This document shows, in pieces, positions 2,968-17,332 of a DNA stretch of 32,000 bases. How positions within the stretch are numbered: the first letter of the stretch is position 1; each line of letters opens with the position of its first letter. The translations under genes were made by a program, and so were the position numbers. The DNA comes from Nanobdellota archaeon (lineage in GTDB: Archaea; Nanobdellota; Nanobdellia; Nanobdellales; Nanobdellaceae). The notes beneath the pieces were generated by a model that saw nothing but the letters and a program-made list of their open reading frames with translations, was not told where the DNA came from and made no database searches. The stretch covers positions 480,001-512,000 of the forward strand of contig AP031373.1 in the NCBI GenBank assembly GCA_042850255.1, given 5' to 3'.

Positions 2968-3297
2968 TTAATTATATATTAAATTTTCTAAAAATTGTCT
3001 AGAAATTACGTAGTCTTTTTTACTTAATTCAGATAAAAAATCTTCTAAAAATAAAGTATCTGTTAAAAAATAATTTACTCTTTTTAAAATTTCTCTTTTT
3101 TCTATACCCAAAAATCTAATAAATTCTTCTAAATCTATTATCTCTATTTCACCATCTTTTAAAACTAAATTATTTCTTGCTAATTTATTAATTATTTTTG
3201 ATACATAAGATTTCGATGTATTAGATTCTTTAACTAAATCATTAAATGATATTTTTCTTTTAATCCCTAATACTCTATATATTTTCTCTTTTTCCAT
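2968..3297 (-). CDS. winged-helix DNA-binding protein, probably the N-terminal part of a gene disrupted by an in-frame stop
   Basis: 109-aa ATG ORF. ISFNDLVKESNTSKSYVSKIINKLARNNLV looks like an HTH recognition segment. It is divergent from the hsdM operon. Confidence 0.5.
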   Translation of the reverse strand: MEKEKIYRVLGIKRKISFNDLVKESNTSKSYVSKIINKLARNNLVLKDGEIEIIDLEEFIRFLGIEKREILKRVNYFLTDTLFLEDFLSELSKKDYVISRQFLENLIYN

Positions 3298-3417: not shown

Positions 3418-5130
3418 ATGAATAATACTAATTCTGTATATAATAAACTTCTACAACAATTTGGAGATAAAGAATTTTCTATTAATGATATATTAAATAA
3501 AAAAATATTTGGAGATAATGAAAAAGATATTTTAGAAATATTAAATAAATTAAAAGAAAAAGGTTTATTAATTTTTGATAAAGAAAAAAATAAGTATAAA
3601 TTATTAATAAAATCTTTTGCAAATTATTCTAATTTAAAATCATCATTAAAGAAAGCTGCCGATTTAGTAAGAAACATGTCAGATGGTTATAAAATCCTTT
3701 TAGTTTTATTATTTTACAAAGCATTTAGTGATATATGGAAGAAAGAATATATTGAAGCAAAAGATCAATTAATAAAACAAGGTTTGCCCGAAAAGGATGC
3801 AGAAAAATTATCTAAATTAGAAGGATATCATATTATTAATATACCAGAAGAATATTTATGGGAAAATATATTAAGAACTAGAGAAGGATTAATTGAAAAA
3901 CTTATAAAAGCATTAAGAACTATTTCGGAGAGAAATCTAAAATTATCAGATTCTATTAATAGATTATTAAGATATATAGAAGATTTAAGAAATAAAGAAG
4001 GTTCTGACTTACTTATAAGACAAGCCATGGAAGTATTTAATAATATAGATTTTTCAAATTTAGATTTTGATGCTTTGGGATATGCATATGAATGGTTAAT
4101 AGAACAATTTATGCCAGCTCAGAAGAAGGCAGGAGAATTATTTACTCCTAGAGAAGTTATAGAAGTTTTAGTTAGAATATTAGATCCTTCTAAAGAAAGG
4201 AGGAAAATATTAGATCCGGCTGCAGGATCTGGTGGTATGTTAATAGAAGTATATAAATATGTTAGAAATAATTATGGAGAAGATGTTGCAAAAGAATTAA
4301 TATTAGTTGGACAGGAAATTAATGATGATACATATGCAATATTAGAATTAAATTTTCTTTTACATGGTATAGAATTGGGAAAAAATGTAAAATTATATAG
4401 AGGAGATTCTATATTAAATCCAGGATTTAAAAATGATGGACCATTTGATATTATTATATTTAATCCACCATGGAATGATGATAGATATAATGAAGAAGTT
4501 TTAAAAAAATCTGCAATAAAAGAAATATTTGATAAATATGGATTTCCCCCAAAAACCTCTGCAGATTGGGCTTGGATATTGTTATCATTAAATTACGTAA
4601 ATGATAATGGAAAAGTTGGTATTGTTATAGATAATGGAACTTTATTTAGAGGTGGTAGAGAAAAAACTATAAGAAGTAAAATAATTGAAAATGATTGGGT
4701 AGAGTGTGTAATATTATTACCAGATAAGTTATTTTATAATACTGGAGCACCAGGTGCTATAATAATTTTTAATAAGAATAAACCTGAAAATAGGAAAAAG
4801 AAAATATTATTTATAAATGCTTCCAATTATTATGAAAATCATCCAGATATAAAGAAAATGAATAAATTAAGTAGAGAGGGAATAGAGAAAATTGTAGAAG
4901 TTTATAAAGAATGGAAAGAAATACCAGAATTTTCTAAAACAGTTTCTATAGAAGAAGTAATTAAAAATGATTATAGTTTAAATGTTACTTTATATGTATA
5001 TAATAATTTACAAAATGAAGAAATAAATATAAAAGAAGTATGGGAAGAATTAGAAAAAGTTAATAAAGAATTGAACGAATTGGAAGGAAAAATAAATGAA
5101 TGGATAAATGAAATTACTAAAATAATATAA
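3418..5130 (+). CDS. hsdM: type I restriction-modification system, methyltransferase subunit HsdM (N6-adenine), with an N-terminal winged-helix-like extension
   Basis: HsdM N-domain pattern LKKAADLVRNMSDGYKILLVLLFYKAFSD; FTPREV; SAM motif ILDPAAGSGGML; catalytic NPPW. The track ORF starts at a TTG (3370). The first ATG is at 3418. Confidence 0.9.
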   Translation: MNNTNSVYNKLLQQFGDKEFSINDILNKKIFGDNEKDILEILNKLKEKGLLIFDKEKNKYKLLIKSFANYSNLKSSLKKAADLVRNMSDGYKILLVLLFYKAFSDIWKKEYIEAKDQLIKQGLPEKDAEKLSKLEGYHIINIPEEYLWENILRTREGLIEKLIKALRTISERNLKLSDSINRLLRYIEDLRNKEGSDLLIRQAMEVFNNIDFSNLDFDALGYAYEWLIEQFMPAQKKAGELFTPREVIEVLVRILDPSKERRKILDPAAGSGGMLIEVYKYVRNNYGEDVAKELILVGQEINDDTYAILELNFLLHGIELGKNVKLYRGDSILNPGFKNDGPFDIIIFNPPWNDDRYNEEVLKKSAIKEIFDKYGFPPKTSADWAWILLSLNYVNDNGKVGIVIDNGTLFRGGREKTIRSKIIENDWVECVILLPDKLFYNTGAPGAIIIFNKNKPENRKKKILFINASNYYENHPDIKKMNKLSREGIEKIVEVYKEWKEIPEFSKTVSIEEVIKNDYSLNVTLYVYNNLQNEEINIKEVWEELEKVNKELNELEGKINEWINEITKII

Positions 5131-5132
5131 AG

Positions 5133-5876
5133 ATGATTAATTATAAAATAAAAGATCTAAAATATAATGAAAACTGGAGATATGATCCGGAGTTTAAGAT
5201 ATTTATAGATTCTAATATTTTAGTAGATGGATCACTTAATAATTTTAGGTTTAAATCTTATAAAAAATTATTTGATGATCTATTTATAAAATCTAAGTTT
5301 ATTATCCTTGAAACTAATGTCATTAATATAGTCGAAGCAATTAAGATTCTTATGGACAAAGCAAAAGTTCATTTTTTTATAGATGAATTTGCTCATAATG
5401 TAAATGAACTAAAACATTTACCAGAAAAATATAGAAATTTTATTAATAAGTATTATAATGATATAAGAGAATCATATGGAAAACTATATATTAATAAGCT
5501 CGAAAAGTTTTTAAATTCATACAGAATCTCTGTAATTGATAATGTCAAAATAATATATAAGGATGAAGGTATTTCAGAAAATTGTCAATTTTTGTTAGAA
5601 GACGATGGTTTACTAAATCTCTTTATAATATATGATAAAAGAATAGAATATAATGATTTTATAAGTTTGGCTACTGCTAATCAATTAAAAGACAATATAT
5701 TCATTACTACTGATAACAGATTAGCTGATTCAGTAAAAGATTATAGAATAAATCATTCGAATAATTTTCGATATGTATATTCGCTTGCAGATAGAGGACA
5801 TATAGAAGATCTATTAAAAGATTTAATGAATTGGGGAATAATCGAGAATTATAAAATAGAAGATATCAGACAGTAG
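5133..5876 (+). CDS. PIN-domain-like putative nuclease embedded in the type I R-M operon
   Basis: 247-aa ATG ORF starting 3 nt after hsdM. The acidic motifs appear in PIN/VapC order: KIFIDSNILV, FIILETNV..VE, NDFISLATANQL, NIFITTDNRLA. A large insertion lies between the second and third motifs. Confidence 0.5.
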   Translation: MINYKIKDLKYNENWRYDPEFKIFIDSNILVDGSLNNFRFKSYKKLFDDLFIKSKFIILETNVINIVEAIKILMDKAKVHFFIDEFAHNVNELKHLPEKYRNFINKYYNDIRESYGKLYINKLEKFLNSYRISVIDNVKIIYKDEGISENCQFLLEDDGLLNLFIIYDKRIEYNDFISLATANQLKDNIFITTDNRLADSVKDYRINHSNNFRYVYSLADRGHIEDLLKDLMNWGIIENYKIEDIRQ

Positions 5877-5877
5877 C

Positions 5878-7212
5878 ATGTTAAATAAATTAGTTTTCTA
5901 TAAGGAGATAAAATTTAAAGATATTCCAGAATTAGGAATAAAAATTCCTGAAGATTGGAGAATTAAAAGATTAGTAGAAATATGCTCAAAAATAAGAGCA
6001 GGAGGCACACCTAAAAGAGAAGTTTCAGAATATTGGGGAGGAAGTATACCATTTGTAAAAATAGAAGACATAACTAAAAGTGGCAAATATCTTTATAAAA
6101 CGGAAGAGACAATTACAGAGTTAGGTATAAAAAATTCGAATGCTTGGATGATACCAAAAAATTCTCTACTTTTAGCTATGTATGGTAGCTTAGGAGAAAT
6201 TTCTATAAATAAAATTGAAGTAGCTACGAATCAAGCTATTTTGGGGATTATTCCAAATCCAAATAAAATATATCTAGAATATTTATATTATTGGTACCTA
6301 TTTTTTAAGCCTAATTGGAAAAAATATGCTAAACCTACAACTCAAGCCAATTTGACAGCCGAAATCGTCAAAAATTCTTTGATTCCTCTTCCTCCTCTCG
6401 AAGAACAAAAAGCTATTGCAGAAATATTAAGTACTATAGATAAAACAATCGAAAAGATTCAAGAGAATATCGAAAAAACTGAAAAATTAAAAAAAAGTTT
6501 AATGCAAAAATTGTTAACGGGAGAAATAATAGTTAAAGAAGAAAATGGAAAATATATATTTTATAAGGAGATAAAATTTAAAGATATTCCAGAATTAGGA
6601 ATAAAAATTCCTGAAGATTGGAGAATTAAAAGATTAGATGATAATGAAATTTCTTTAAATATAAGATCAGGAACTACGCCATCTAAAAGAAAAGAATCAT
6701 ATTGGAATGGAAATATTTTATTTGTTACAATTAGCGATATGACTAAAACAAATAAATACCTTATAGATACAGAAAATAAGATAACAGAACTAGCTCTGAA
6801 AGAATCTAAAGTACTTTTAATTCCAGAAGAAAATATACTTCTATCTATGTATGGAACTATAGGGAAAGTAGTTATTAATAAGAAACCAGTAGCTATAAGT
6901 CAGAATATTGCTGGTATTATAGTAAATAAGCAATATGTGGATATTAATTACTTATTCTATGCTTTAAAATATTATTCATATCAATTTGACCGAGCTAAGA
7001 TCATTACTTTAAAACATTTAGATATAAAAATCGTCAAAAATTCTTTGATTCCTCTTCCTCCTCTCGAAGAACAAAAAGCTATTGCAGAAATATTAAGTAC
7101 TATAGATAAAAAAATAGAACTATTAAAACAGAAAAAAGAATTATTAGAAATAATTAAAAAATGGTTTATGAAAAAATTGTTAGCAGGAGAAATAAGAGCA
7201 AAATATGGATGA
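5878..7212 (+). CDS. hsdS: type I restriction-modification system, specificity subunit HsdS (two target recognition domains)
   Basis: 444 aa in two tandem halves of about 221 aa. Each half has a TRD followed by the conserved IPLPPLEEQKAIAEILSTIDK helix typical of HsdS. Confidence 0.9.
   Translation: MLNKLVFYKEIKFKDIPELGIKIPEDWRIKRLVEICSKIRAGGTPKREVSEYWGGSIPFVKIEDITKSGKYLYKTEETITELGIKNSNAWMIPKNSLLLAMYGSLGEISINKIEVATNQAILGIIPNPNKIYLEYLYYWYLFFKPNWKKYAKPTTQANLTAEIVKNSLIPLPPLEEQKAIAEILSTIDKTIEKIQENIEKTEKLKKSLMQKLLTGEIIVKEENGKYIFYKEIKFKDIPELGIKIPEDWRIKRLDDNEISLNIRSGTTPSKRKESYWNGNILFVTISDMTKTNKYLIDTENKITELALKESKVLLIPEENILLSMYGTIGKVVINKKPVAISQNIAGIIVNKQYVDINYLFYALKYYSYQFDRAKIITLKHLDIKIVKNSLIPLPPLEEQKAIAEILSTIDKKIELLKQKKELLEIIKKWFMKKLLAGEIRAKYG
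5899..5974. repeat. 76-bp perfect direct repeat, copy 1 (start of TRD1)
   Basis: Identical to 6562-6637: tataaggagataaaatttaaagatattccagaattaggaataaaaattcctgaagattggagaattaaaagattag. Confidence 0.9.
6362..6445. repeat. 84-bp perfect direct repeat, copy 1 (conserved region after TRD1)
   Basis: Identical to 7028-7111: aaatcgtcaaaaattctttgattcctcttcctcctctcgaagaacaaaaagctattgcagaaatattaagtactatagataaaa. Confidence 0.9.
6562..6637. repeat. 76-bp perfect direct repeat, copy 2 (start of TRD2)
   Basis: Identical to 5899-5974, at an offset of 663 nt. Confidence 0.9.
7028..7111. repeat. 84-bp perfect direct repeat, copy 2 (conserved region after TRD2)
   Basis: Identical to 6362-6445, at an offset of 666 nt. 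Confidence 0.9.
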
Positions 7213-8290
7213 TAAATATTATATATATGGAGAATATCTTTTATATGTTTTTATAATAATTATTATTTTTTCTTATATATTTCTAGTTATATTTAGAATA
7301 ATATATAATAGTATTTTTTATATTTTAAACCCTAATCTGTTAAATATAACCTTAAATATACTAAATAAGCAGATTTTAAATAGTTTAATTATATCTATAT
7401 TGTCGGTCTACATTTATCAGTTATATATCATTTTTAATAAAAAGTCTCATTTTTCAGATATATTTGAACAAAATAAAATATATATAAATATTGGTAATTT
7501 ATTTACGAACTTAGCAGGAATGGTTTTATATAACCCCTTTATTAATTTTGTATTTTTATTTTTGATATATTATTATGTATATATTATTTTTGGAAATCTT
7601 CCATCTTTACTATTTATAGTAGTTTTTTATGTTTCCCTTCTTTTAATAGAGTTTATTTTTAGAAATTTATTGTACTTAGATATTACAATAAAGTCTAATT
7701 ACAGTTCTCTCAAAGAATTTTATGATCCTTATATAAACAAAAAGATACAAGTAGATAATAAAGGTTATCTGATAGCCTCAGCTTTAATCATAAGTATAAA
7801 TACAGCATTTTTTTATATTATCCGATGTTTTTCGATATTTATTATAAGTATATTATTTGTGGTTTTGCTTATAATGGTCGTATTTACGATTTTGGTAGCT
7901 ATAAAAAAATTGAAAAAAGAGTATCTTATCTATTTTTATCGAGAACTATATCCTAATTTAAATATTTTTTATTCTTTGTTAAGGTTTTTCGAATATATGA
8001 TAATAATAGTTATTCCTTTTTTACTTTATTATATTTTTTACTATATGAATCTTTTAGAAATCATCAAAATTATAATTGCCTTTATTATAATAGAAGTTAT
8101 GTTGGATATAATAACTGTTTTTAACAAAATATTAAAAATTCCTTTCCTTATTAAATATTTAGAATTAGAAAACGGTATATTTTATGCCAATATCTTGCTT
8201 CTCGAAGAAACAAAAGATTATTTAATTATTTTAGATCAATCTAATAATATAATTAGAGTCTATAAAAATAAAATTATTGAAATGTATTAA
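7205..8290 (+). CDS. hypothetical polytopic membrane protein embedded between hsdS and hsdR
   Basis: 361-aa ATG ORF whose start overlaps the hsdS stop (ATGGATGA). It has roughly 7-9 hydrophobic helices by eye and a short soluble C-terminal tail, LELENGIFYANILLLEETKDYLIILDQSNNIIRVYKNKIIEMY. No family recognised. Confidence 0.55.
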   Translation: MDDKYYIYGEYLLYVFIIIIIFSYIFLVIFRIIYNSIFYILNPNLLNITLNILNKQILNSLIISILSVYIYQLYIIFNKKSHFSDIFEQNKIYINIGNLFTNLAGMVLYNPFINFVFLFLIYYYVYIIFGNLPSLLFIVVFYVSLLLIEFIFRNLLYLDITIKSNYSSLKEFYDPYINKKIQVDNKGYLIASALIISINTAFFYIIRCFSIFIISILFVVLLIMVVFTILVAIKKLKKEYLIYFYRELYPNLNIFYSLLRFFEYMIIIVIPFLLYYIFYYMNLLEIIKIIIAFIIIEVMLDIITVFNKILKIPFLIKYLELENGIFYANILLLEETKDYLIILDQSNNIIRVYKNKIIEMY

Positions 8291-8326
8291 GTTATATAAA
8301 AGGTATTACAAATATATTAAATTATA

Positions 8327-11300
8327 ATGAATGAGCAACAAATCAAACAAAAAGTATTGGAAATTTTAAAATCAAATAATTGGAATTATATTGAAAGTAA
8401 AAATTTAAACAAATCATCAAAAGAGATTATTATAGAAGATATCTTCTTCAAAAAAATAAGAGAATTAAATAAAAATTTAGAATTAACTGATAAAGATATA
8501 GAAAAAGTTTTAGATAAATTATTAAATTCTGATGGTAAAGAAGTTTTAAGATATTTAAAGAAGGGAATTTCAATTAAATTAGAAAAAACAAATAATATAG
8601 AAACAATAAAGATAATAGATTATGAAAATATAGAAAATAATTCCTTTATTGTATCTGATGAAGTTAGATTTAAACAAATGGAAAATGAGATTTATGTAGA
8701 TTTAGTACTGTTTATTAACGGAATTCCTTTTATTATAATAGAAAATGAAAGTATGAAAGATGGAGAGTGGAAAAAAGGATTTCAACAAATAGTTAATTAT
8801 ATTAAACTTATACCAAAATTAGCAAATATAAGTCAAATAGGTTTAGTTATTGCAGATAATATATATTATTTTCCAATTGATGAAGAATTTATTAAAAAGG
8901 AAGAATCTAAATTAGAAGGAAGATTGCAAATATGGAAACCTGATGAAAATAGAAAAACTAACGATTGGAATACAATATTAAATTCAACTATTGGCTATTT
9001 ATTAAAACCTGAAATATTATTAAAAATAATAAAATATTATACTTTTTATCAAATAAAAGAGAATAGAAAAATATTGCCAAGATATTTTCAATTTTATACT
9101 GTTGAAAAATTATATAATAAATTTAAAGAAAGATTGGAAGGAAAATCTAGTGATAAAAGTTGGGTTGTATGGCATTATCAAGGATCAGGAAAATCTATGA
9201 CAATGGCTTATTTATCTAAAATAATATTAAATAAATTGGGTAAAGAATTTTCAATAGATCCTGTAATATTAATTGTGGTTGATAGATTAGAATTACAAAA
9301 TCAAATGGATGAACAGACTTTTAAAAATGTAGATTTAGATTTAGAGCATCCTGAAAAAGTTATCGATAATTTAAGAGAATTATTAATTGATATATTAAGA
9401 AAAGGAGAAAAACCACAATCTGGTGTATATATTGTAACTATACAAAAGTTTGGGAAAAGTAGTTCAGAAGAATCTGAAGATGAAGATTTAAATACAGACG
9501 ATTTATATAATTCAGTAAAAGGTGTTGGATTAACAGAAGAAGATATAAAAAGAATTTCGGGAAGAAAAGATATATTTATATTAATAGATGAGGCGCATAG
9601 GAGTCATTATGGAAAATTGGGAAAAATACTAAATTATATATTTGGATCTGCATTTTATGTTGCATTTACAGGTACTCCATTATTAGGTAAAGATAAAAAT
9701 ACATTTAGATTATTTGGAGAACCTATAGATATATATTTTATTGATGAAGCTGAAGAAGATAAATATATAGTTCCTATCTTTTATAGAGCAGAATATGATA
9801 TAATAAATTTGACTTTAGATATACTTAAAAAAGAAAAAGAAATAAAAGATAATGAAGAATATAATAAAGTTATTACTGAAGTATTAGAAGGATATTTACC
9901 AGAAAATTTAGAAAATATAGAAAAAATTTATAATTTAAATGAATCTTTAAAGAGAAAATTATTAGATTTAAGAAGATTAGTATTTGAGAATGATTATAGA
10001 ATTAAAGAAATTAGTAAGAAAATATCTGAACATTTTAAAAATGAAGTAGAGCCTTTAGGTTTTAAAGCAATGGTAATAGTAGCTACTAGAAAAGCTGCAG
10101 TTAGGTATGTAAAAATATTAAAAGAATTGTTGGGAGAAGATACTGTAGAAGCAATTATAACATATCAAGGAACAGAAGATGATACTGAAATTTTGAATTA
10201 TAGGGAATATTTAATAAAAAAATATGGAAAAGGATTGAAAGATTATAATGAATTAAATGATATAATAAAAAATAAGTTTAAGGAAGATGAAAATCCAAAA
10301 ATATTGGTAGTAGTAAATAAATTAATAACAGGTTTTGATGAGAAGAAATTACAAACAATATATATAGATAGGTTTATGGTTAGTCATACATTATTACAAG
10401 CTATAGGGAGATGTGATAGACCATATCCTGAAAAGAATAAAGTTAATGGCTTAATAGTAGATTTTGTTGGATTAATAGATAGATTAAAAAAAGCCATTGA
10501 TTTATATTTTGGAACTAAAGATATAAAATTGGATCAATCAATATTATTGGAATATAAAGATATAAAAAGCGAATTAAAGAAAATTATAGATAAAATAAAT
10601 GAAAAAATATTTAATATTGTAGATATGGACCTAAATAAGGAGTTATCTAATTATAAGAAATATTTAGAGAATAATAATGTAGAATCTATAAAAGATTTAA
10701 TAGACGATATAATATTAGATATACTAGAAAATGGTTTAGATGGAAAATTTAGGGAAATTTTTAGAGAATTTGAAAGTACTTTATTTTCTCCAGTAACAGA
10801 TTTAAATATAAGGGAAGAATTTTATATATATTATGAGTTTTTATTATTAATTAAAAGTCAGATAGATTCTTTAAAAGAAAATGAAATAAAAACAGTTGAT
10901 GATATTAAAAGAATAGCAAATATTAAGGCTGAAGAAATTTTAGATAAATTATATAAAAATACAACGATACAACAATTTTTAACTTTTGAAAAGAAAGAAC
11001 TATCAGAAATAGTATCTGATGTAAAATCTGGAAAATATATAAATATTATAGATTTAAATAAGTTATCAAATAACGAAAAAGAGAGTAAAAAGGTATTGGC
11101 AAAATCTGTAAAGGCAATGATAATACTAAAAGAAAATGAACCGGCTTTTGTAGATATAATAGACAAAATAATAAAGAAAATTCAAGATTATAATAGAAAG
11201 AAGTATAATTCTTATATGATATTAAGTGAATTAATACCAGAAATTAAAAAGATACAAGAAATAGAAGATATAAAAAATAAATATAATTTTGATAGTGATG

Positions 11301-11581
11301 GATTGTTTATCTATAATTTATTATCAGAATCAATTAAAGATTTAAATGAAGAAGAGTTAATAAACATATCTAAGAAAATAAGAGAAAAGATATTGGAAGC
11401 TGAAGAACATAAAGAAAGTAATGATTTTTGTAGAATATTAAGTAGGAATATACAATTTGGGGTTGTTATATCATTATTAAATAAAAATATTGATGAAAAT
11501 ATAAAAGAAAATATAGTAAAAAGGATAAAAGAGCATTTTGCTAATAAATATAAGGAATGTCAGGACGAACTATTAAGATAA
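8327..11581 (+). CDS. hsdR: type I restriction enzyme, restriction/helicase subunit HsdR
   Basis: 1084 aa. The N-terminal PD-(D/E)xK-like nuclease region is VDLVLFINGIPFIIIENESMK. SF2 helicase motif I is GSGKS, motif II is LIDEAHRSH (DEAH), and the later motif is QAIGRCDR. Confidence 0.92.
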   Translation: MNEQQIKQKVLEILKSNNWNYIESKNLNKSSKEIIIEDIFFKKIRELNKNLELTDKDIEKVLDKLLNSDGKEVLRYLKKGISIKLEKTNNIETIKIIDYENIENNSFIVSDEVRFKQMENEIYVDLVLFINGIPFIIIENESMKDGEWKKGFQQIVNYIKLIPKLANISQIGLVIADNIYYFPIDEEFIKKEESKLEGRLQIWKPDENRKTNDWNTILNSTIGYLLKPEILLKIIKYYTFYQIKENRKILPRYFQFYTVEKLYNKFKERLEGKSSDKSWVVWHYQGSGKSMTMAYLSKIILNKLGKEFSIDPVILIVVDRLELQNQMDEQTFKNVDLDLEHPEKVIDNLRELLIDILRKGEKPQSGVYIVTIQKFGKSSSEESEDEDLNTDDLYNSVKGVGLTEEDIKRISGRKDIFILIDEAHRSHYGKLGKILNYIFGSAFYVAFTGTPLLGKDKNTFRLFGEPIDIYFIDEAEEDKYIVPIFYRAEYDIINLTLDILKKEKEIKDNEEYNKVITEVLEGYLPENLENIEKIYNLNESLKRKLLDLRRLVFENDYRIKEISKKISEHFKNEVEPLGFKAMVIVATRKAAVRYVKILKELLGEDTVEAIITYQGTEDDTEILNYREYLIKKYGKGLKDYNELNDIIKNKFKEDENPKILVVVNKLITGFDEKKLQTIYIDRFMVSHTLLQAIGRCDRPYPEKNKVNGLIVDFVGLIDRLKKAIDLYFGTKDIKLDQSILLEYKDIKSELKKIIDKINEKIFNIVDMDLNKELSNYKKYLENNNVESIKDLIDDIILDILENGLDGKFREIFREFESTLFSPVTDLNIREEFYIYYEFLLLIKSQIDSLKENEIKTVDDIKRIANIKAEEILDKLYKNTTIQQFLTFEKKELSEIVSDVKSGKYINIIDLNKLSNNEKESKKVLAKSVKAMIILKENEPAFVDIIDKIIKKIQDYNRKKYNSYMILSELIPEIKKIQEIEDIKNKYNFDSDGLFIYNLLSESIKDLNEEELINISKKIREKILEAEEHKESNDFCRILSRNIQFGVVISLLNKNIDENIKENIVKRIKEHFANKYKECQDELLR

Positions 11582-12237
11582 ATAATTTGGAATTTAATAT
11601 AAAGGTAGAAAAAACAAATTCTAAATATACATACATAAAATTTAATGGTAATAATATAATAATAAAAACGAAGTTTAATAATGTTGATAATATAATACCA
11701 ATTATAGAAAAAAATTTGGAAAAATTAGAATTATATTCTTTACCAAAAGAGATATTCGAAGAATTACCAATATTTGGAATTCCATATAAATTAATTATAA
11801 AAAATATAAAAAGAAAATATTTAATATTTCATAAGAAAAGATTAATTATATTAAATCCAAATTATAAGGAAGATTTTATTAATTATCTATCGAAATTATT
11901 AATTAAATATTGTAGTAAAGAGATTAAGAAGTTTTTAAAATTATTAGACATAAATATAAATCCAGAGATAGAAATAAAAATTATGAAATCTAAATATGCT
12001 TATGTAAAGGATAATAAAATATATTTGAGTATAATAAATGTATTTTTTCCAAAATATTTGATAGATTATATTTTATTTCATGAAGTTATACATTTTAAGA
12101 TTAAAAATCATGGCTATCAATTTAAAAAGTTATTAGAAATGCTTTATCCAAATTATAAAGAATTAGAAAAAGAATTAAAAAAGTGGACAATTGCAATATT
12201 CTATAACAAAAATATAAATAATTTATTAAATATCTAA
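11557..12237 (+). CDS. DUF45/YgjP-like zinc metallohydrolase (HExxH), a family frequently linked to type I R-M loci
   Basis: 226-aa ATG ORF overlapping the hsdR 3' end by 25 nt. The C-terminal ILFHEVIHFKIKNHGYQFKKLLEMLYPNYKE matches the DUF45 HExxH...H..F signature. Confidence 0.7.
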   Translation: MSGRTIKINNLEFNIKVEKTNSKYTYIKFNGNNIIIKTKFNNVDNIIPIIEKNLEKLELYSLPKEIFEELPIFGIPYKLIIKNIKRKYLIFHKKRLIILNPNYKEDFINYLSKLLIKYCSKEIKKFLKLLDININPEIEIKIMKSKYAYVKDNKIYLSIINVFFPKYLIDYILFHEVIHFKIKNHGYQFKKLLEMLYPNYKELEKELKKWTIAIFYNKNINNLLNI

Positions 12238-12323
12238 TTATCCAGAATTTTTAATTGTTTCGAAAATATAGACTTTCCAAATAAGAGGATTAAAAAAAGA
12301 TAAAAGATCTATTAGGTTTAATT

Positions 12324-12506
12324 ATGCTGATATCTTTTACTAAATATGATATAAGTGTTGTAAAAGAATTAATAAAGAAATATGAATTATATCCTAAAAT
12401 TATAATAGAAGAATTCGATATTGTAAAAGATTTATTAGAATATTTTGATTTTTCTCAAGAAGAGATAAATAATTTGAGAAAAATTTTAATGATCATAGAA
12501 GATTAA
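12324..12506 (+). CDS. hypothetical small acidic protein
   Basis: 60-aa ATG ORF, helical and acidic. No family recognised. Confidence 0.35.
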   Translation: MLISFTKYDISVVKELIKKYELYPKIIIEEFDIVKDLLEYFDFSQEEINNLRKILMIIED

Positions 12507-12523
12507 GATAAAAATTCTTTGTA

Positions 12524-12742
12524 ATGTTTGATAAATTAAAAATAATTATGGCAAATGAAATAATCCAAATATCGAAAGATGAGTTGATTCGAATATTTGA
12601 GGATAAATTGAAAGAAGTATTGTTACAAGCATTTATTGAATTAATTCCATATGTATCTGAAAAAGAACAAAAAGAAATAGAAGAAATAGTAGGTGATATA
12701 TCAAAATATAAGAAAGAAAATTTTGAAGATCTCTATATATAA
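12524..12742 (+). CDS. hypothetical small acidic protein (possible antitoxin-like or regulatory protein)
   Basis: 72-aa ATG ORF. The ELIPYVSEKEQKEIEEIVG segment resembles small thermophile proteins I cannot name with certainty. Confidence 0.35.
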   Translation: MFDKLKIIMANEIIQISKDELIRIFEDKLKEVLLQAFIELIPYVSEKEQKEIEEIVGDISKYKKENFEDLYI

Positions 12743-12835: not shown

Positions 12836-12881
12836 GACCGCGGGGATTCGAACCCCGGTCCCTGGGACCCAAACCCAGTAG
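12836..12881 (-). repeat. tRNA-Pro 3'-portion fragment (positions about 26-71), a putative att-type duplication
   Basis: gaccgcggggattcgaaccccgGtccctgggacccaaacccagtag matches 14202-14247 at 45 of 46 positions in the same orientation. It covers the anticodon arm, variable region, T arm and most of the 3' acceptor strand. Similarity stops abruptly on both sides. Confidence 0.8.
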
Positions 12882-12984
12882 TAAAGAAAAATTTCGCATT
12901 TTCATATTCAAAAAGCTTTAAATCATTGAATAAGATTATTTTACATATTATGTAAATTTTAACATGTATAGCAGTTTAATTATT

Positions 12985-13347
12985 CTATTTTTTTATTGTT
13001 ATTATCCTTATCTCCATATTTCTAGGTTTATCTTCCACAGCATTCTTGTGTATCTCGAAGAACCAACTCTTTTTGTATTTTTTTGCCATCTCTTTTGAAT
13101 TCGAAAAAATTTTAATAACAGTATTACATTTTTCACAGATTATTCCATAAAAATCGGGCCAATATCTAAATATTATGACGATAAAAAGATATATTGGGAT
13201 TTTATATTTTTTATATACATATACTAATATTTGTGGTGTTTGCTCTTTACATATAGGACAGTATCCTTCAAATTTTTCTAGAACTTGTAATTTTCTTTTT
13301 ACTGAAATAACCTTTATATTTTCATTATTTATAGTATTATTTTTCAT
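12985..13347 (-). CDS. hypothetical zinc-ribbon protein with a central hydrophobic segment
   Basis: 120-aa ATG ORF with two CxxC pairs (CPICKEQ ... CEKCNT) flanking IPIYLFIVIIFRYW. Confidence 0.45.
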   Translation of the reverse strand: MKNNTINNENIKVISVKRKLQVLEKFEGYCPICKEQTPQILVYVYKKYKIPIYLFIVIIFRYWPDFYGIICEKCNTVIKIFSNSKEMAKKYKKSWFFEIHKNAVEDKPRNMEIRIITIKK

Positions 13348-13498
13348 AAAATTATTTTTTAGGATTATTAATAAAAATTTTACTTAATTAGTTTTTAGGT
13401 AATTATCCCAATAAAAATTATTGTATCAAATTATAATAAAACTACGGGAAGACGAGATTTAAACAATATATTTAAATGTTTCTAGTAATAATTAATGT

Positions 13499-14095
13499 AT
13501 GGAAAGTAAACAAGATAGATATAAATGGACAACTAGAGAAATAGTATTTTTGACAATTGCAATAATATTTGCTATTCTTACTGTTGTCTTTGGTTTTCTT
13601 TATGTGAATAATAATAATGTTAATAAAAATACAATTTCGATAAATCAATATAATGCATTATTATCTAACTATACTAGTTTACAAGAACAGTATAATGCTA
13701 TATTACAAGGAATGCAGGGTGGTTTGGGATCATCAACTCTTATACAACCTGGTTATATGGATGCACTTACAACACTTTATGTACCATATAATTGTATAGC
13801 AACTGCTACCCTGAGTGTAAATGCTAGTGGTTTTGTTTATGTATATATTATGGGTTTATATAATACTATATATAACCAGGTAAATAACTATTCAATATCT
13901 CTTGGATTGCCACCTCCTTATAATATTAGTTATTATTATCAATTTAATGGAACCTACATAAATCAGATTATAACTTTAGAACCAAATTACGCTGGTGGAG
14001 ATTATTATTTTGTATTTGTAGATAATGAAGGAACATCGCCAGTTTATGCAATAGCGGATATTTATTTGGACAATCTTTCATGTTATATAAGTTGA
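13499..14095 (+). CDS. hypothetical membrane-anchored, Asn/Tyr-rich secreted-type protein
   Basis: 198-aa ATG ORF. TM helix IVFLTIAIIFAILTVVFGFLYV is followed by an N/Y/S-rich domain with several N-x-S/T sequons. It shares a PYNC motif with ORF 974-1432. Confidence 0.5.
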   Translation: MESKQDRYKWTTREIVFLTIAIIFAILTVVFGFLYVNNNNVNKNTISINQYNALLSNYTSLQEQYNAILQGMQGGLGSSTLIQPGYMDALTTLYVPYNCIATATLSVNASGFVYVYIMGLYNTIYNQVNNYSISLGLPPPYNISYYYQFNGTYINQIITLEPNYAGGDYYFVFVDNEGTSPVYAIADIYLDNLSCYIS

Positions 14096-14198
14096 AATAC
14101 ATAGATTTTATTGTTAATTTTTATTTGCGTATATTATAATTTAAGTCCATTATTTTTAAGTTTAGCTATTTTCTTTATTAGAAATAAGAAATAAAATC

Positions 14199-14269
14199 TG
14201 GGACCGCGGGGATTCGAACCCCGATCCCTGGGACCCAAACCCAGTAGCCTTCCACTAGCCTACGGTCCC
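14199..14269 (-). tRNA. tRNA-Pro (anticodon UGG)
   Basis: The minus strand reads GGGACCG-TA-GGCT-AGTGGAA-GGCT-A-CTGGG-TTTGGGT-CCCAG-GGAT-CGGGG-TTCGAAT-CCCCG-CGGTCCC-A. The anticodon loop is UU-UGG-GU with G37. No CCA is encoded. Confidence 0.9.
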
Positions 14270-15599: not shown

Positions 15600-15924
15600 C
15601 GAATTATTAGAATACTTATATCAACAAAAAGAAGAATTAGAAAAAAGATTATTAGAATATTCATTAATTAAACAATACATAACAGATTTGAAGAAACAGG
15701 ATCAAACATATATTAATTTAGGTGGATATATATTTGTAAAAGGTTCTATATTAGATGATAGTAAATTGTTGATAAATGTAGGCAGAAATATATTTATAGA
15801 AAAAAATAAAGAAGAAGTATTAAAATTAGTTGATGATGTGGTAAATAAATTAAATCAGGAATTAGATAATATTAATAAAAAGATAGTGGAAATAACTAAC
15901 CAGAGAAAAACTCTTCAATCTTAA
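15586..15924 (+). CDS. pfdA: prefoldin alpha subunit (short form)
   Basis: 112 aa. Coiled-coil ends flank the beta-hairpin core YINLGGYIFVKGSILDDSKLLINVGRNIFIEKNKEE. Synteny with rplX supports the call. Confidence 0.55.
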   Translation: MEEYDELLEYLYQQKEELEKRLLEYSLIKQYITDLKKQDQTYINLGGYIFVKGSILDDSKLLINVGRNIFIEKNKEEVLKLVDDVVNKLNQELDNINKKIVEITNQRKTLQS

Positions 15925-16528
15925 TAATTTCGTGTCCAGTACTATATTTTCCTATTATTATATAATCTTTGTTTATTTCTATTCCATATCTTAAATAGGG
16001 ACTACCGAAATTAATAGATCCTATATCTATTTTATATCCGGATATTTCTCCAATTTTTTCTATTATCTTATCATCAATTTCTTGTGATATCAATAATTTA
16101 TTCTTATATATTTTTGAAATACTTCCAGCCAAATATTTCATTTTTATTCTATAGGCGGGTAATGATAAAACTTTTGATAATATCTCTACATCTTTTTCTT
16201 TTCCTTTAGAATATATTATTCCATTTTTTCCAATTATATATAAATTACCAATTAAATTTTCTATAGTATTAATCTCTATTAAATCAAATTTTTCTTTTAA
16301 AATTTTCTTTAATTCATCTGGAGAATTTTTACTTATTATAATCTTCCCATCATATTCTATAAAATATGGGGAAATTATTGGAGAATCAATATAATATTTA
16401 TTCATATCAATTCCTAATTTTTCAATTTTATTTTTTTCTTTAATATTAGCAATTAAAAAATCATCAAATAAATGTAAAATTAAACCAATTGATGGAGTTT
16501 CAATATCATTAGCTTTTTTTATTATCAT
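15896..16528 (-). CDS. eif6: translation initiation factor 6 (aIF6/eIF6)
   Basis: About 210 aa with pentein-like repeats. The N-terminal ETPSIGLILHLFDDFLIA and C-terminal GSPYLRYGIEINKDYIIIGKYSTGHEIIKIEEFF resemble aIF6. The track ORF starts at a TTG (16534). The first ATG is at 16528. Confidence 0.6.
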   Translation of the reverse strand: MIIKKANDIETPSIGLILHLFDDFLIANIKEKNKIEKLGIDMNKYYIDSPIISPYFIEYDGKIIISKNSPDELKKILKEKFDLIEINTIENLIGNLYIIGKNGIIYSKGKEKDVEILSKVLSLPAYRIKMKYLAGSISKIYKNKLLISQEIDDKIIEKIGEISGYKIDIGSINFGSPYLRYGIEINKDYIIIGKYSTGHEIIKIEEFFSG

Positions 16529-16591
16529 AATCAATATTGATAATCAATAAAATTATAAAGATTTATATTTATCCAAATATCCTATTAAGAT

Positions 16592-17332
16592 ATGAATATA
16601 TTTTCTAAGATATTTAAAAGAAGTAATGAAAATAACAAAGAATTTGTACCTGTCCAAACTCAAAATCCTATCCAAAATCCTGTTCCCAACTATGATTCAG
16701 AAATAAAAAGTATTGCAAATTCAATAGAAGGATTAGCTAAATCTGTAAGGGATTTAGAAAGCAAAGTTTCAGATATTTCTAATAAATTTTCAGATTTAAA
16801 TACAAAAGTAGAAAATAATCAAAATGAAATAAATAATATAAAAAATAATATGGAAAAAATATTTTCAATATATGAGTTATTAATAAAAAACTATAATCCA
16901 TTTGTTGAAGATGAAAATATAGAAAATAAAGAGATAAATATAGAAAATAATAAAATAATAGAAGAAGAAAAAGAAGAAAATGTTTTACCTTTAAGTAATT
17001 TAGATAATAATCCTACAGTTGCTTCTATTGTTATAGGATGGTTATCATATTTAATGAGAAAATCTAATTTAGAAGAAGTGGACAAATCTTTAGATTATTA
17101 TGAAGAAATAAATTGGATAACAGAAGATGTTAAAATAAAATTAAAAGAATATTTGAAAGGATTGGAAAATATAGAAGGAGAAAATAAAAAATTGACACCT
17201 ATGGATCATATAGTAAGTTTATACATAATTTATAAATTATCTCAATTAAGAGGAGAAGGAAATATTGAAAGATTAAAGGATTTATATAAAGAGCTAATAC
17301 AAAAAGGATATATATCTCCAGTTAAACAATGA
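16592..17332 (+). CDS. arlD: archaellum protein ArlC/D/E-like (FlaD/E domain)
   Basis: 246 aa. An N-terminal coiled coil is followed by the C-terminal segment NPTVASIVIGWLSYLMRKSNLEEVDKSLDYYEEINWITEDV, which matches the FlaD/E W..FL....YYe..gWIs pattern. It lies upstream of arlH and arlI. Confidence 0.55.
   Translation: MNIFSKIFKRSNENNKEFVPVQTQNPIQNPVPNYDSEIKSIANSIEGLAKSVRDLESKVSDISNKFSDLNTKVENNQNEINNIKNNMEKIFSIYELLIKNYNPFVEDENIENKEINIENNKIIEEEKEENVLPLSNLDNNPTVASIVIGWLSYLMRKSNLEEVDKSLDYYEEINWITEDVKIKLKEYLKGLENIEGENKKLTPMDHIVSLYIIYKLSQLRGEGNIERLKDLYKELIQKGYISPVKQ

Follow-up and report, generated by a model that had tools for sequence, protein, structure and literature searches.

Which of the extra genes lodged between hsdM, hsdS and hsdR of a type I restriction-modification (R-M) operon are functionally tied to the R-M complex, and which are cargo that shares its transcript? 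The question is raised by an operon of the Nanobdellota archaeon YN1, which we analysed within a 32,000-nucleotide stretch of its genome (GenBank assembly GCA_042850255.1, contig AP031373.1, positions 480,001 to 512,000 of the forward strand), hereafter the window. In this operon, a gene for a 247-aa protein separates hsdM from hsdS, a gene for a 361-aa membrane protein separates hsdS from hsdR, and a YgjP-like (DUF45) gene follows hsdR. The original prediction, made from the nucleotide sequence of the window, took the two inserts for a PIN-like nuclease and a polytopic membrane protein that might together form an R-M-guarded two-effector module, a second line of abortive-infection-type defence. 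The explanation that we favour, with somewhat better than even confidence, is that of an R-M operon with two cargo slots, the first holding an R-M-linked PIN nuclease and the second an orphan membrane protein.

Several precedents frame the question. In the EcoprrI system, the R-M complex keeps the nuclease PrrC latent (Loenen et al.). Outside an embedded position in type I R-M systems PrrC is hardly ever encountered, and under the name of 'guilt by embedding' a catalogue has been made of the defence genes that sit inside Hma, BREX, DISARM and type I R-M systems, RNases of the PIN and NYN types among them (Payne et al. 2024, bioRxiv 10.1101/2024.01.29.577857). PIN genes that are presumably co-transcribed with hsdM, hsdS and hsdR have also been described; some of these lack an antitoxin, which suggests another mode of control, and closely related species as a rule do not share the arrangement (Matelska et al. 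2017). The novelty at first accorded to the embedding and pairing of the YN1 genes was overstated in this light, since embedded genes and antitoxin-less links between PIN genes and type I systems were already published and a pair of a PIN_2 protein and a membrane protein, described below, recurs in archaeal operons.

YN1, a cultivated ectosymbiont of Sulfurisphaera ohwakuensis, belongs to the small number of DPANN archaea that grow in co-culture. Its genome has 889 coding sequences and no CRISPR array, and the authors of the genome mention R-M only as 'types I and IV'. About 8.8 kb of this genome is given to the operon described here, and because so much is spent in a genome of only 889 genes that lacks a CRISPR array, the operon is probably a main antiviral barrier of YN1.

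The 247-aa protein as a probable PIN-fold nuclease

The 247-aa protein encoded between hsdM and hsdS is very probably a PIN-fold nuclease with predicted catalytic acidic residues, as judged from a structural model and from an alignment of its relatives. The four acidic motifs recognized in the original prediction, D26 (IFIDSN), E68 (IVEAI), D175 (YNDFIS) and D194 (TTDNR), stand in the order of the PIN fold and are conserved in an alignment of the eight known family members, the first three being invariant and the fourth present in seven. An AlphaFold2 model built from 8 sequences (pLDDT 77.2, pTM 0.78), which replaced a discarded model from 3 sequences (pLDDT 48), has a predicted three-layer alpha/beta/alpha fold that matches PIN structures: each of the top 18 Foldseek matches in the PDB was a PIN protein (probability 0.87-1.00, target TM-score 0.49-0.69), among them PAE0151, PAE2754, PH0500, Rickettsia felis VapC2, Mycobacterium tuberculosis VapCs and AF1683, with the protein-only RNase P (HARP) PIN proteins placed lower. 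One relative (P0005) also passes the Pfam PIN model, at 30.2 bits against a cut-off of 23.6 and over profile positions 1-116 of 120, and three others (P0007-P0009) have weak or faint precomputed PIN-family matches only. The modelled structure and the conserved acidic residues bear out the initial assignment.

Three features of the model depart from a plain VapC. A helical insert of ~100 aa (residues ~63-170) lies between E68 and D175, a C-terminal alpha/beta extension (helix plus strand, ~205-247) pairs with the N-terminal strand, and this strand is itself conserved. Family profiles compared with PDB sequences gave only ESCRT-III winged-helix matches at E = 0.08-0.41, which are not significant, and, where the helical insert lies, a match to a Bre1 coiled coil at 0.002, which is nothing meaningful; no winged-helix domain is therefore proposed for the C-terminus. 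The PIN protein matches no PHROGs family and no model of PADLOC-DB 2.0.0, and neither it nor the membrane protein has a paralogue within the window.

A rare PIN family known only from the hsdM/hsdS junction

Relatives of the PIN protein were sought in a collection of 5.8 billion protein sequences. When a 3-sequence profile was run exhaustively with HMMER against 1.84 billion cluster representatives, only three proteins reached E <= 0.001, one close and two distant relatives, and a search with a 5-sequence profile enlarged the family to eight proteins of 242-310 aa. In every locus whose contig extends far enough, the PIN gene stands directly after hsdM and directly before hsdS, and its junctions are overlaps or gaps of <= 24 nt with no intervening ORF, so that there is no room for an antitoxin gene. 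No family member outside the hsdM/hsdS context was found among the 5.8 billion sequences. The tie between PIN and R-M genes, first proposed from the YN1 operon, thus extends to the family.

The G+C content of the PIN loci ranges from 27 to 47%, which indicates that their hosts are diverse. Pairwise identity between PIN proteins correlates with that between the adjacent HsdM proteins (Spearman 0.81, over 21 pairs that are not independent), and the family co-diverges with HsdM down to ~45% HsdM identity. The PIN-linked hsdM genes form two basal groups in an HsdM tree, and this apparent distribution agrees with inheritance of the PIN gene along with the operon and its later replacement in some branches. 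Three further scans for relatives returned nothing: a PIN-pattern scan of the GTDB species-representative genomes, a scan of viral contigs for the PIN protein, and a metagenome scan for the close PIN group, the last of which also missed two known JGI contigs and so was not exhaustive.

Three PIN operons of higher G+C content (L003, L006 and L007; Table 1) have extra same-strand genes past YgjP. Their YgjP-like protein, at ~105 aa, is half the size of that of YN1, and it is followed by a 1114-aa protein in L003, by a small ORF and a transglutaminase-core protein in both L006 and L007, and additionally by an EVE-domain protein in L006. The conserved unit in these three operons may reach beyond YgjP.

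Cargo slots in the wider operon lineage

To place the YN1 inserts in context, GTDB species-representative genomes were scanned with an HsdM alignment and the best 80 HsdM matches were taken as 80 loci (L010-L089), which come from many archaeal and bacterial phyla. The hsdM/hsdS junction is referred to as slot 1 and the hsdS/hsdR junction as slot 2. Slot 1 proved to be occupied in 40 of the 44 loci having both genes, by 90 genes that fall into ~55 sequence clusters, and slot 2 in 20 of 31 loci, by 34 genes. The families identified in slot 1 include Schlafen/AlbA_2 (SLFN_AlbA_2) with HATPase_c_4, SIR2_2, ORF6N, KAP NTPase, PIN_2, PIN/PIN_3, AbiEii, AbiJ, Shedu SduA_C, Fic, HEPN and NYN; those in slot 2 include HEPN with nucleotidyltransferase, HepT, UPF0175, PIN_3, NYN, GIY-YIG, MazE and wHTH regulators. 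The cargo thus belongs mostly to known defence or toxin families, and non-homologous membrane proteins recur in both slots of other loci. We conclude with high confidence that this operon lineage spans Archaea and Bacteria and that both junctions are hypervariable cargo sites, filled mostly with defence or toxin genes.

Turnover is evident among the nearest relatives. The closest available operon is that of Nanobdella aerobiophila MJ1 (NZ_AP019769.1, L010), whose core proteins are 64 (HsdM), 45 (HsdS), 44 (HsdR) and 44% (YgjP) identical to those of YN1. Like the YN1 operon, it has an overlap of hsdR with the YgjP-like gene, a feature of nearly all related loci with full-length hsdR; unlike YN1, it carries a 112-aa Mrr_cat/NERD-like protein in place of the PIN protein, and its slot 2 is empty, hsdS and hsdR overlapping by 17 nt. 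The genes that flank it are not syntenic with the window. The next HsdM relatives (L011 and L012) carry other, unrelated slot-1 genes, so that the four operons with the closest HsdM, where both are known, hold four unrelated genes in this position. The YN1 layout is therefore one instance of a common and fast-turning-over cargo pattern. Variability of the inserts among related operons, which the original prediction had equated with random cargo, accordingly applies in full to the membrane gene, which is variable cargo, and in part to the PIN gene, which is recurrent but replaceable.

Two other arrangements in slot 1 resemble that of YN1 in part. The only marginal match to the YN1 PIN profile in the 80 surveyed loci (E = 7e-4) is a 207-aa protein of a Thermococcus sp. 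(L054) and an uncultured Thermococci archaeon (L035), which is followed in L054 by a 117-aa protein with one transmembrane segment. An hhalign comparison of the PIN family with Thermococcus slot-1 PIN proteins gave a weak alignment, restricted to the D175-D194 segment, at 26% probability, and the 207-aa protein may be a distant cousin of the YN1 family. Separately, slot 1 of L013, L031 and L045, whose hosts are Thermoplasmata, DHVE2 and one unclassified archaeon, is occupied by a PIN_2 protein of ~350 aa that has one or two transmembrane helices around residues 204-232; in L013 and L031 this protein is directly followed, just before hsdS, by a ~100-aa protein with 3-4 transmembrane segments. 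This is a genuine pairing of a PIN protein with a membrane protein, unrelated to the YN1 genes.

The core R-M genes

Apart from its cargo, the YN1 locus is a complete type I R-M operon comprising hsdM, hsdS, hsdR and a YgjP-like metalloprotease gene, all four of which have Pfam matches, as the first description of the locus had led one to expect. HsdM matches N6_Mtase (2.9e-101) and HsdM_N (1e-08) in Pfam and MTase_I in PADLOC (4.3e-87), and retains the SAM motif DPAAGSGG and the NPPW motif. The hsdM frame opens at TTG 3370, and homologues align from about residue 5-8 of the product that begins at ATG 3418. An N-terminal extension of ~70 aa ahead of HsdM_N, which has no confident family match, is common to most of the 80 related HsdM proteins and missing from the shorter (~510-520 aa) ones of Thermococcus and Archaeoglobus; in YN1 it contains a 43-nt imperfect tandem repeat.

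HsdS matches Pfam Methylase_S in two stretches (1e-58) and PADLOC Specificity_I (1.2e-84). Two pairs of direct repeats within its gene, one of 88 nt (94% identical) and one of 176 nt (84%), encode the duplicated conserved regions of the protein and are possible recombination substrates that could reshuffle or halve the specificity gene.

HsdR matches HSDR_N (8.1e-26), SWI2_SNF2 (7.9e-50), ResIII and T1R_D3-like models in Pfam and REase_I in PADLOC (3e-75). When aligned against 25 homologues, its nuclease motif, D125...E138-N-E140 within residues 124-142, proved to be an E-x-E variant of the usual E-x-K. The variant is found in both Nanobdellota (E-N-E in YN1, E-I-E in MJ1) and E-x-K in the 24 other homologues, and by sequence it is to be read as a lineage-specific, BamHI-like form of the active site. 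QxxxY (residues 153-158), the Walker A motif QGSGKS and the DEAH box are all intact. The YgjP-like protein scores 73.0 bits against Pfam PF01863 (cut-off 26; 4.3e-20) and carries the HExxH zinc motif as HEVIH at residues 175-179.

The orphan membrane protein

The 361-aa membrane ORF between hsdS and hsdR is real and not a chance reading frame: it runs for 361 codons without a stop, whereas the longest such run in 2000 shuffles was 139 codons, and each of the remaining frames of the region, five in all, carries 27-51 stops. In agreement with the earlier reading of this protein, a hydropathy scan shows a multi-pass protein of ~9-10 hydrophobic or transmembrane segments with short positively charged loops (e.g. 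KKLKK at 233-237), whose C-terminal ~40 aa, starting near residue 320, form a soluble tail. It matches no family in the four libraries searched (Pfam, PADLOC, NCBIfam and PHROGs). A search of the 5.8-billion collection, which was word-filtered, scored the 8000 top word-sharing candidates and thus had limited sensitivity, recovered only the protein itself, and no relative appeared in the metagenome scan, in the viral contig scan or in 89 fetched loci. Against PDB sequences, the best match was a TRAP small permease at E = 0.22, which is not significant.

Proposed explanation and its alternatives

Combining these observations, we propose that slot 1 of the YN1 operon is occupied by a solo PIN nuclease of the VapC type, whose very small family is known only from that slot, and slot 2 by a lineage-specific, orphan polytopic membrane protein, the two genes having been acquired independently and not as a conserved pair. 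The PIN protein would be made together with HsdM and HsdS by translational coupling. As an effector it would be a nuclease without an antitoxin, probably an RNase, and either its activity or its stability would hinge on the methylase core. Two versions of this dependence can be envisaged. In one, the protein would be a PrrC-like, latent second-line nuclease that is freed when the R-M complex is inhibited; in the other, it would be an addiction element that penalises loss of the operon. Such R-M-dependent control is the tentative part of the proposal, and we hold it to be possible but doubtful. The membrane protein would be co-expressed cargo and may, by analogy with other membrane proteins in the slots, be a membrane effector.

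Several points weigh against this proposal. The YN1 PIN protein itself fails the Pfam PIN threshold (18.7 against 23.6 bits, over its C-terminal third only) and falls below the threshold of every Pfam PIN model; the E-values of its Foldseek matches are modest, at 3e-3 and weaker; and one family member (P0006) has N at the fourth acidic position. The PIN substrate may be RNA or DNA. The tie of the PIN protein to HsdM and HsdS rests on gene position, by which functional dependence and shared expression are not separable. A defence role for the membrane protein is suggested purely by analogy, there being no homologue or defence-family match. The restriction arm of YN1 is not certain to be active, because E-x-E in its HsdR replaces the E-x-K of 24 related proteins. 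Finally, the survey of cargo slots covers the best 80 HsdM matches, and its genes were labelled by our own pipeline of ORF calling and iterated HMM searches.

The alternative that survives best concerns the membrane protein, which might be a hitch-hiking non-defence gene, such as a symbiont envelope or transport protein, that settled in a permissive junction. DPANN genomes are rich in orphan membrane proteins, this one is an orphan without a defence-family match whose only faint and non-significant echo is the TRAP small permease, and the region lies beside a tRNA-Pro integration scar, described below, that is a sign of local gene flux. However, the membrane gene starts before hsdS has ended, an overlap that favours its expression together with the R-M genes; the slot-2 cargo that could be identified elsewhere is overwhelmingly toxin or defence related; and non-homologous membrane proteins are a recurrent content of these slots. 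We regard this alternative as a serious one that falls a little short of even odds.

For the PIN protein, the chief competitor is an autonomous embedded defence gene or selfish toxin gene. Such a gene would exploit the operon for nothing but its expression and joint transfer, would be tied to R-M neither physically nor in its regulation, and would be controlled through the insert and C-terminal extension of its own product. Shedu, SIR2, AbiE and HEPN-MNT are among the dozens of unrelated autonomous systems present in the slots, and slot-1 content turns over among close relatives; the predicted ~100-aa helical insert and C-terminal module could be auto-regulatory; and the embedded candidates of Payne et al. 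defend alone when tested. Autonomous systems are normally also found outside R-M operons, however, whereas the present family has been met nowhere else among 5.8 billion sequences and co-diverges with HsdM over the range given above. Autonomy of the PIN protein thus remains plausible, yet we incline against it.

A stricter form of the guarded-nuclease idea, and in our judgement an unlikely one, would make the hsdM-PIN-hsdS arrangement an archaeal equivalent of EcoprrI/PrrC whose nuclease has another fold. The PIN protein would here be a translationally coupled, latent and stoichiometric partner of the M2S methylase core, held inactive via its helical insert or C-terminal module and let loose on cellular RNA when a virus disables R-M.

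The module first proposed, in which the PIN and membrane proteins form one R-M-guarded two-effector abortive-infection unit, is largely refuted by the comparative data. Both genes do lie in one tightly packed operon, with junctions of a 2-nt gap, a 1-nt gap and an 8-nt overlap, and PIN-membrane combinations do occur in this setting, because the different pair of a PIN_2 and a small membrane protein recurs in slot 1 of three archaeal operons (L013, L031 and L045). Against the module, the membrane protein has no detectable relative anywhere, including beside the seven other PIN family members; slot 2 is empty in PIN operons L003 and L007 and holds four unrelated genes in L006; the PIN and membrane genes of YN1 occupy different slots, with hsdS between them; and MJ1 has neither insert. 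The pairing not being conserved, the idea of a joint module is set aside as very improbable.

Hardly credible, finally, is a role of the PIN protein in supplying or assisting DNA cleavage for a drifted HsdR, as restriction machinery rather than as second-line effector: both Nanobdellota HsdR proteins lack the lysine present in the 24 other homologues, both operons have a nuclease in slot 1 (PIN in YN1, Mrr_cat/NERD-like in MJ1) and the structural neighbour PAE2754 has reported DNA exonuclease activity, but the HsdR proteins of PIN-bearing L003, L006 and L007 have canonical E-A-K, so that the PIN association is independent of the HsdR change, and E-x-E is an active variant in BamHI, with D125, E138, QxxxY and the motor motifs of the YN1 protein intact.

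Comparison with known systems

One of the closest known systems to the arrangement that we favour, an R-M-linked PIN nuclease in slot 1, is EcoprrI of the E. coli prr locus, a type IC system. In both cases, the nuclease gene is nested in the hsd operon without a separate antitoxin, and the PIN family is known only from inside type I hsd operons, much as PrrC is nearly confined to them. PrrC, however, is an ABC-ATPase fused to an anticodon-nuclease domain, whereas the YN1 protein has a predicted PIN fold, no ATPase and no homology to PrrC; it gave no PrrC, ABC or ATPase match in PADLOC or Pfam. A protein with such different domains does not belong to the PrrC family. The position differs as well, prrC lying between hsdS and hsdR and the YN1 PIN gene between hsdM and hsdS.

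VapC toxins are the closest neighbours of the PIN protein by modelled structure, and share with it a predicted site of four acidic residues. Unlike in VapBC systems, no VapB-like gene stands upstream in any PIN locus, because the PIN gene abuts or overlaps hsdM, and without an antitoxin gene the YN1 PIN gene is not a VapBC module. With its ~100-aa helical insert and C-terminal extension, the protein is also nearly twice the size of VapC. In contrast to the poorly conserved PIN-type I arrangements described by Matelska et al. (2017), this family keeps the order hsdM-PIN-hsdS in every known member, down to ~45% HsdM identity. The HsdM lineage as a whole resembles the guilt-by-embedding systems in having extra genes between the core genes, many of them defence systems, and the same pattern was seen in the 80 loci; the YN1 case differs from that set in that the PIN and membrane proteins match no PADLOC-DB 2.0.0 model and in that the host is a DPANN archaeon.

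The new elements are modest: a PIN family that is very rare, lies below Pfam detection in YN1 and is unusually faithful to the hsdM/hsdS slot, and an orphan membrane protein that accompanies it in a cultivable DPANN archaeon. These results extend published observations and do not overturn current understanding. The cargo slots nonetheless provide a convenient supply of candidate defence genes, many orphan membrane proteins among them, and the PIN family offers a concrete test case for whether R-M complexes guard nucleases besides PrrC. If the PrrC-counterpart reading were true, it would mean a second, independently evolved class of guarded nuclease, in a cultivable DPANN symbiont without CRISPR.

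Gene layout and flanking region

The six genes of the operon lie on one strand in a window of 19-28% G+C. Their coordinates, gaps and overlaps, as first described, were all reproduced exactly in the ORF list of the window (Table 1); the junctions were read directly in the sequence or derived from coordinates. The 2-nt gap between hsdM and the PIN gene reads TAA-ag-ATG, the PIN gene is separated from hsdS by 1 nt, the hsdS stop and the membrane gene start share the 8-nt overlap ATGGATGA, a 36-nt gap precedes hsdR, and the 3' end of hsdR overlaps the YgjP-like gene by 25 nt.

Table 1. Positions of the genes, motifs and flanking features of the YN1 operon (window coordinates) and of features in related loci (coordinates of the respective locus)
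Feature	Position (nt)	Strand	Description
hsdM	3418-5130	+	570 aa from ATG 3418; type I N6-adenine DNA methyltransferase subunit
HsdM N-terminal extension	3418-3630		~70 aa
hsdM tandem repeat	3459-3501 / 3507-3549		43 nt, imperfect
HsdM SAM motif	4213-4236		DPAAGSGG
HsdM NPPW motif	4462-4473		NPPW
PIN gene (YN1_5500)	5133-5876	+	247 aa; slot-1 cargo; solo, very probably PIN-fold nuclease
PIN codon D26	5208-5210		predicted catalytic residue
PIN codon E68	5334-5336		predicted catalytic residue
PIN codon D175	5655-5657		predicted catalytic residue
PIN codon D194	5712-5714		predicted catalytic residue
hsdS	5878-7212	+	specificity subunit, two target-recognition domains
hsdS direct repeat, 88 nt	5887-5974 / 6550-6637		94%
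hsdS direct repeat, 176 nt	6362-6537 / 7028-7203		84%
Membrane protein gene (YN1_5520)	7205-8290	+	361 aa; slot-2 cargo; orphan, polytopic
Soluble tail of membrane protein	from 8162		~40 aa
Membrane gene/hsdR gap	8291-8326		36 nt
hsdR	8327-11581	+	1084 aa; restriction/translocase subunit
HsdR nuclease motif	8696-8752		residues 124-142, E-x-E
HsdR Walker A	9179-9196		QGSGKS
HsdR DEAH box	9587-9598		DEAH
YgjP-like (DUF45) gene	11557-12237	+	226 aa; zinc metallopeptidase fold
YgjP-like zinc motif	12079-12093		HEVIH
109-aa ORF	2968-3297	-	divergent from hsdM
tRNA-Arg(TCT)	2106-2181
Copy of the 3' half of tRNA-Pro(TGG), and tRNA-Pro(TGG) itself	12836-12881 and 14199-14269	-	46-nt copy, one mismatch
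Segment between tRNA-Pro copies	12882-14198
PIN operon L003, YgjP-like and following genes	5444-9115		operon order PIN - hsdS - hsdR - YgjP
PIN operon L007, YgjP-like and following genes	10186-12070		operon order hsdM - PIN - hsdS - hsdR - YgjP
PIN operon L006, YgjP-like and following genes	10397-12735		operon order hsdM - PIN - hsdS - four unrelated genes - hsdR - YgjP
L013, cargo with PIN_2 protein	6281-7632		~350 aa, slot 1
L031, cargo with PIN_2 protein	5956-7314		~350 aa, slot 1
L045, PIN_2 protein	15717-16760		~350 aa, slot 1
L054, slot-1 protein	10176-10796		207 aa, Thermococcus sp.
L035, slot-1 protein	11713-12336		207 aa, uncultured Thermococci archaeon

Two elements of this layout may bear on expression. 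The gap ahead of hsdR contains TTATATAAAA, ~30 nt upstream of the hsdR ATG; TTATATAAAA would suit an archaeal TATA box for a near-leaderless hsdR transcript and may, at 22% G+C, be due to chance. The 109-aa ORF that diverges from hsdM, ~120 nt upstream, has weak winged-HTH matches (MarR, Rrf2 and Lrs14-like), each below threshold, and its product could be a regulator of the operon.

The flanks of the operon carry tRNA genes on either side, tRNA-Arg(TCT) upstream and tRNA-Pro(TGG) downstream. The 3' half of the latter is duplicated in the same orientation 1.3 kb away, as a copy that spans the anticodon stem to the acceptor end, and this arrangement resembles the duplicated att site that an integrative element leaves behind. 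The end of the R-M operon lies ~600 nt outside the scar; the notion of the operon as a mobile island was discarded, as the sole att-like repeat brackets the adjoining 1.3-kb segment and not the operon. Within that segment are a zinc-ribbon ORF of 120 aa, which weakly echoes endonuclease VII, and a gene for a 198-aa protein whose N-terminus carries a transmembrane helix.

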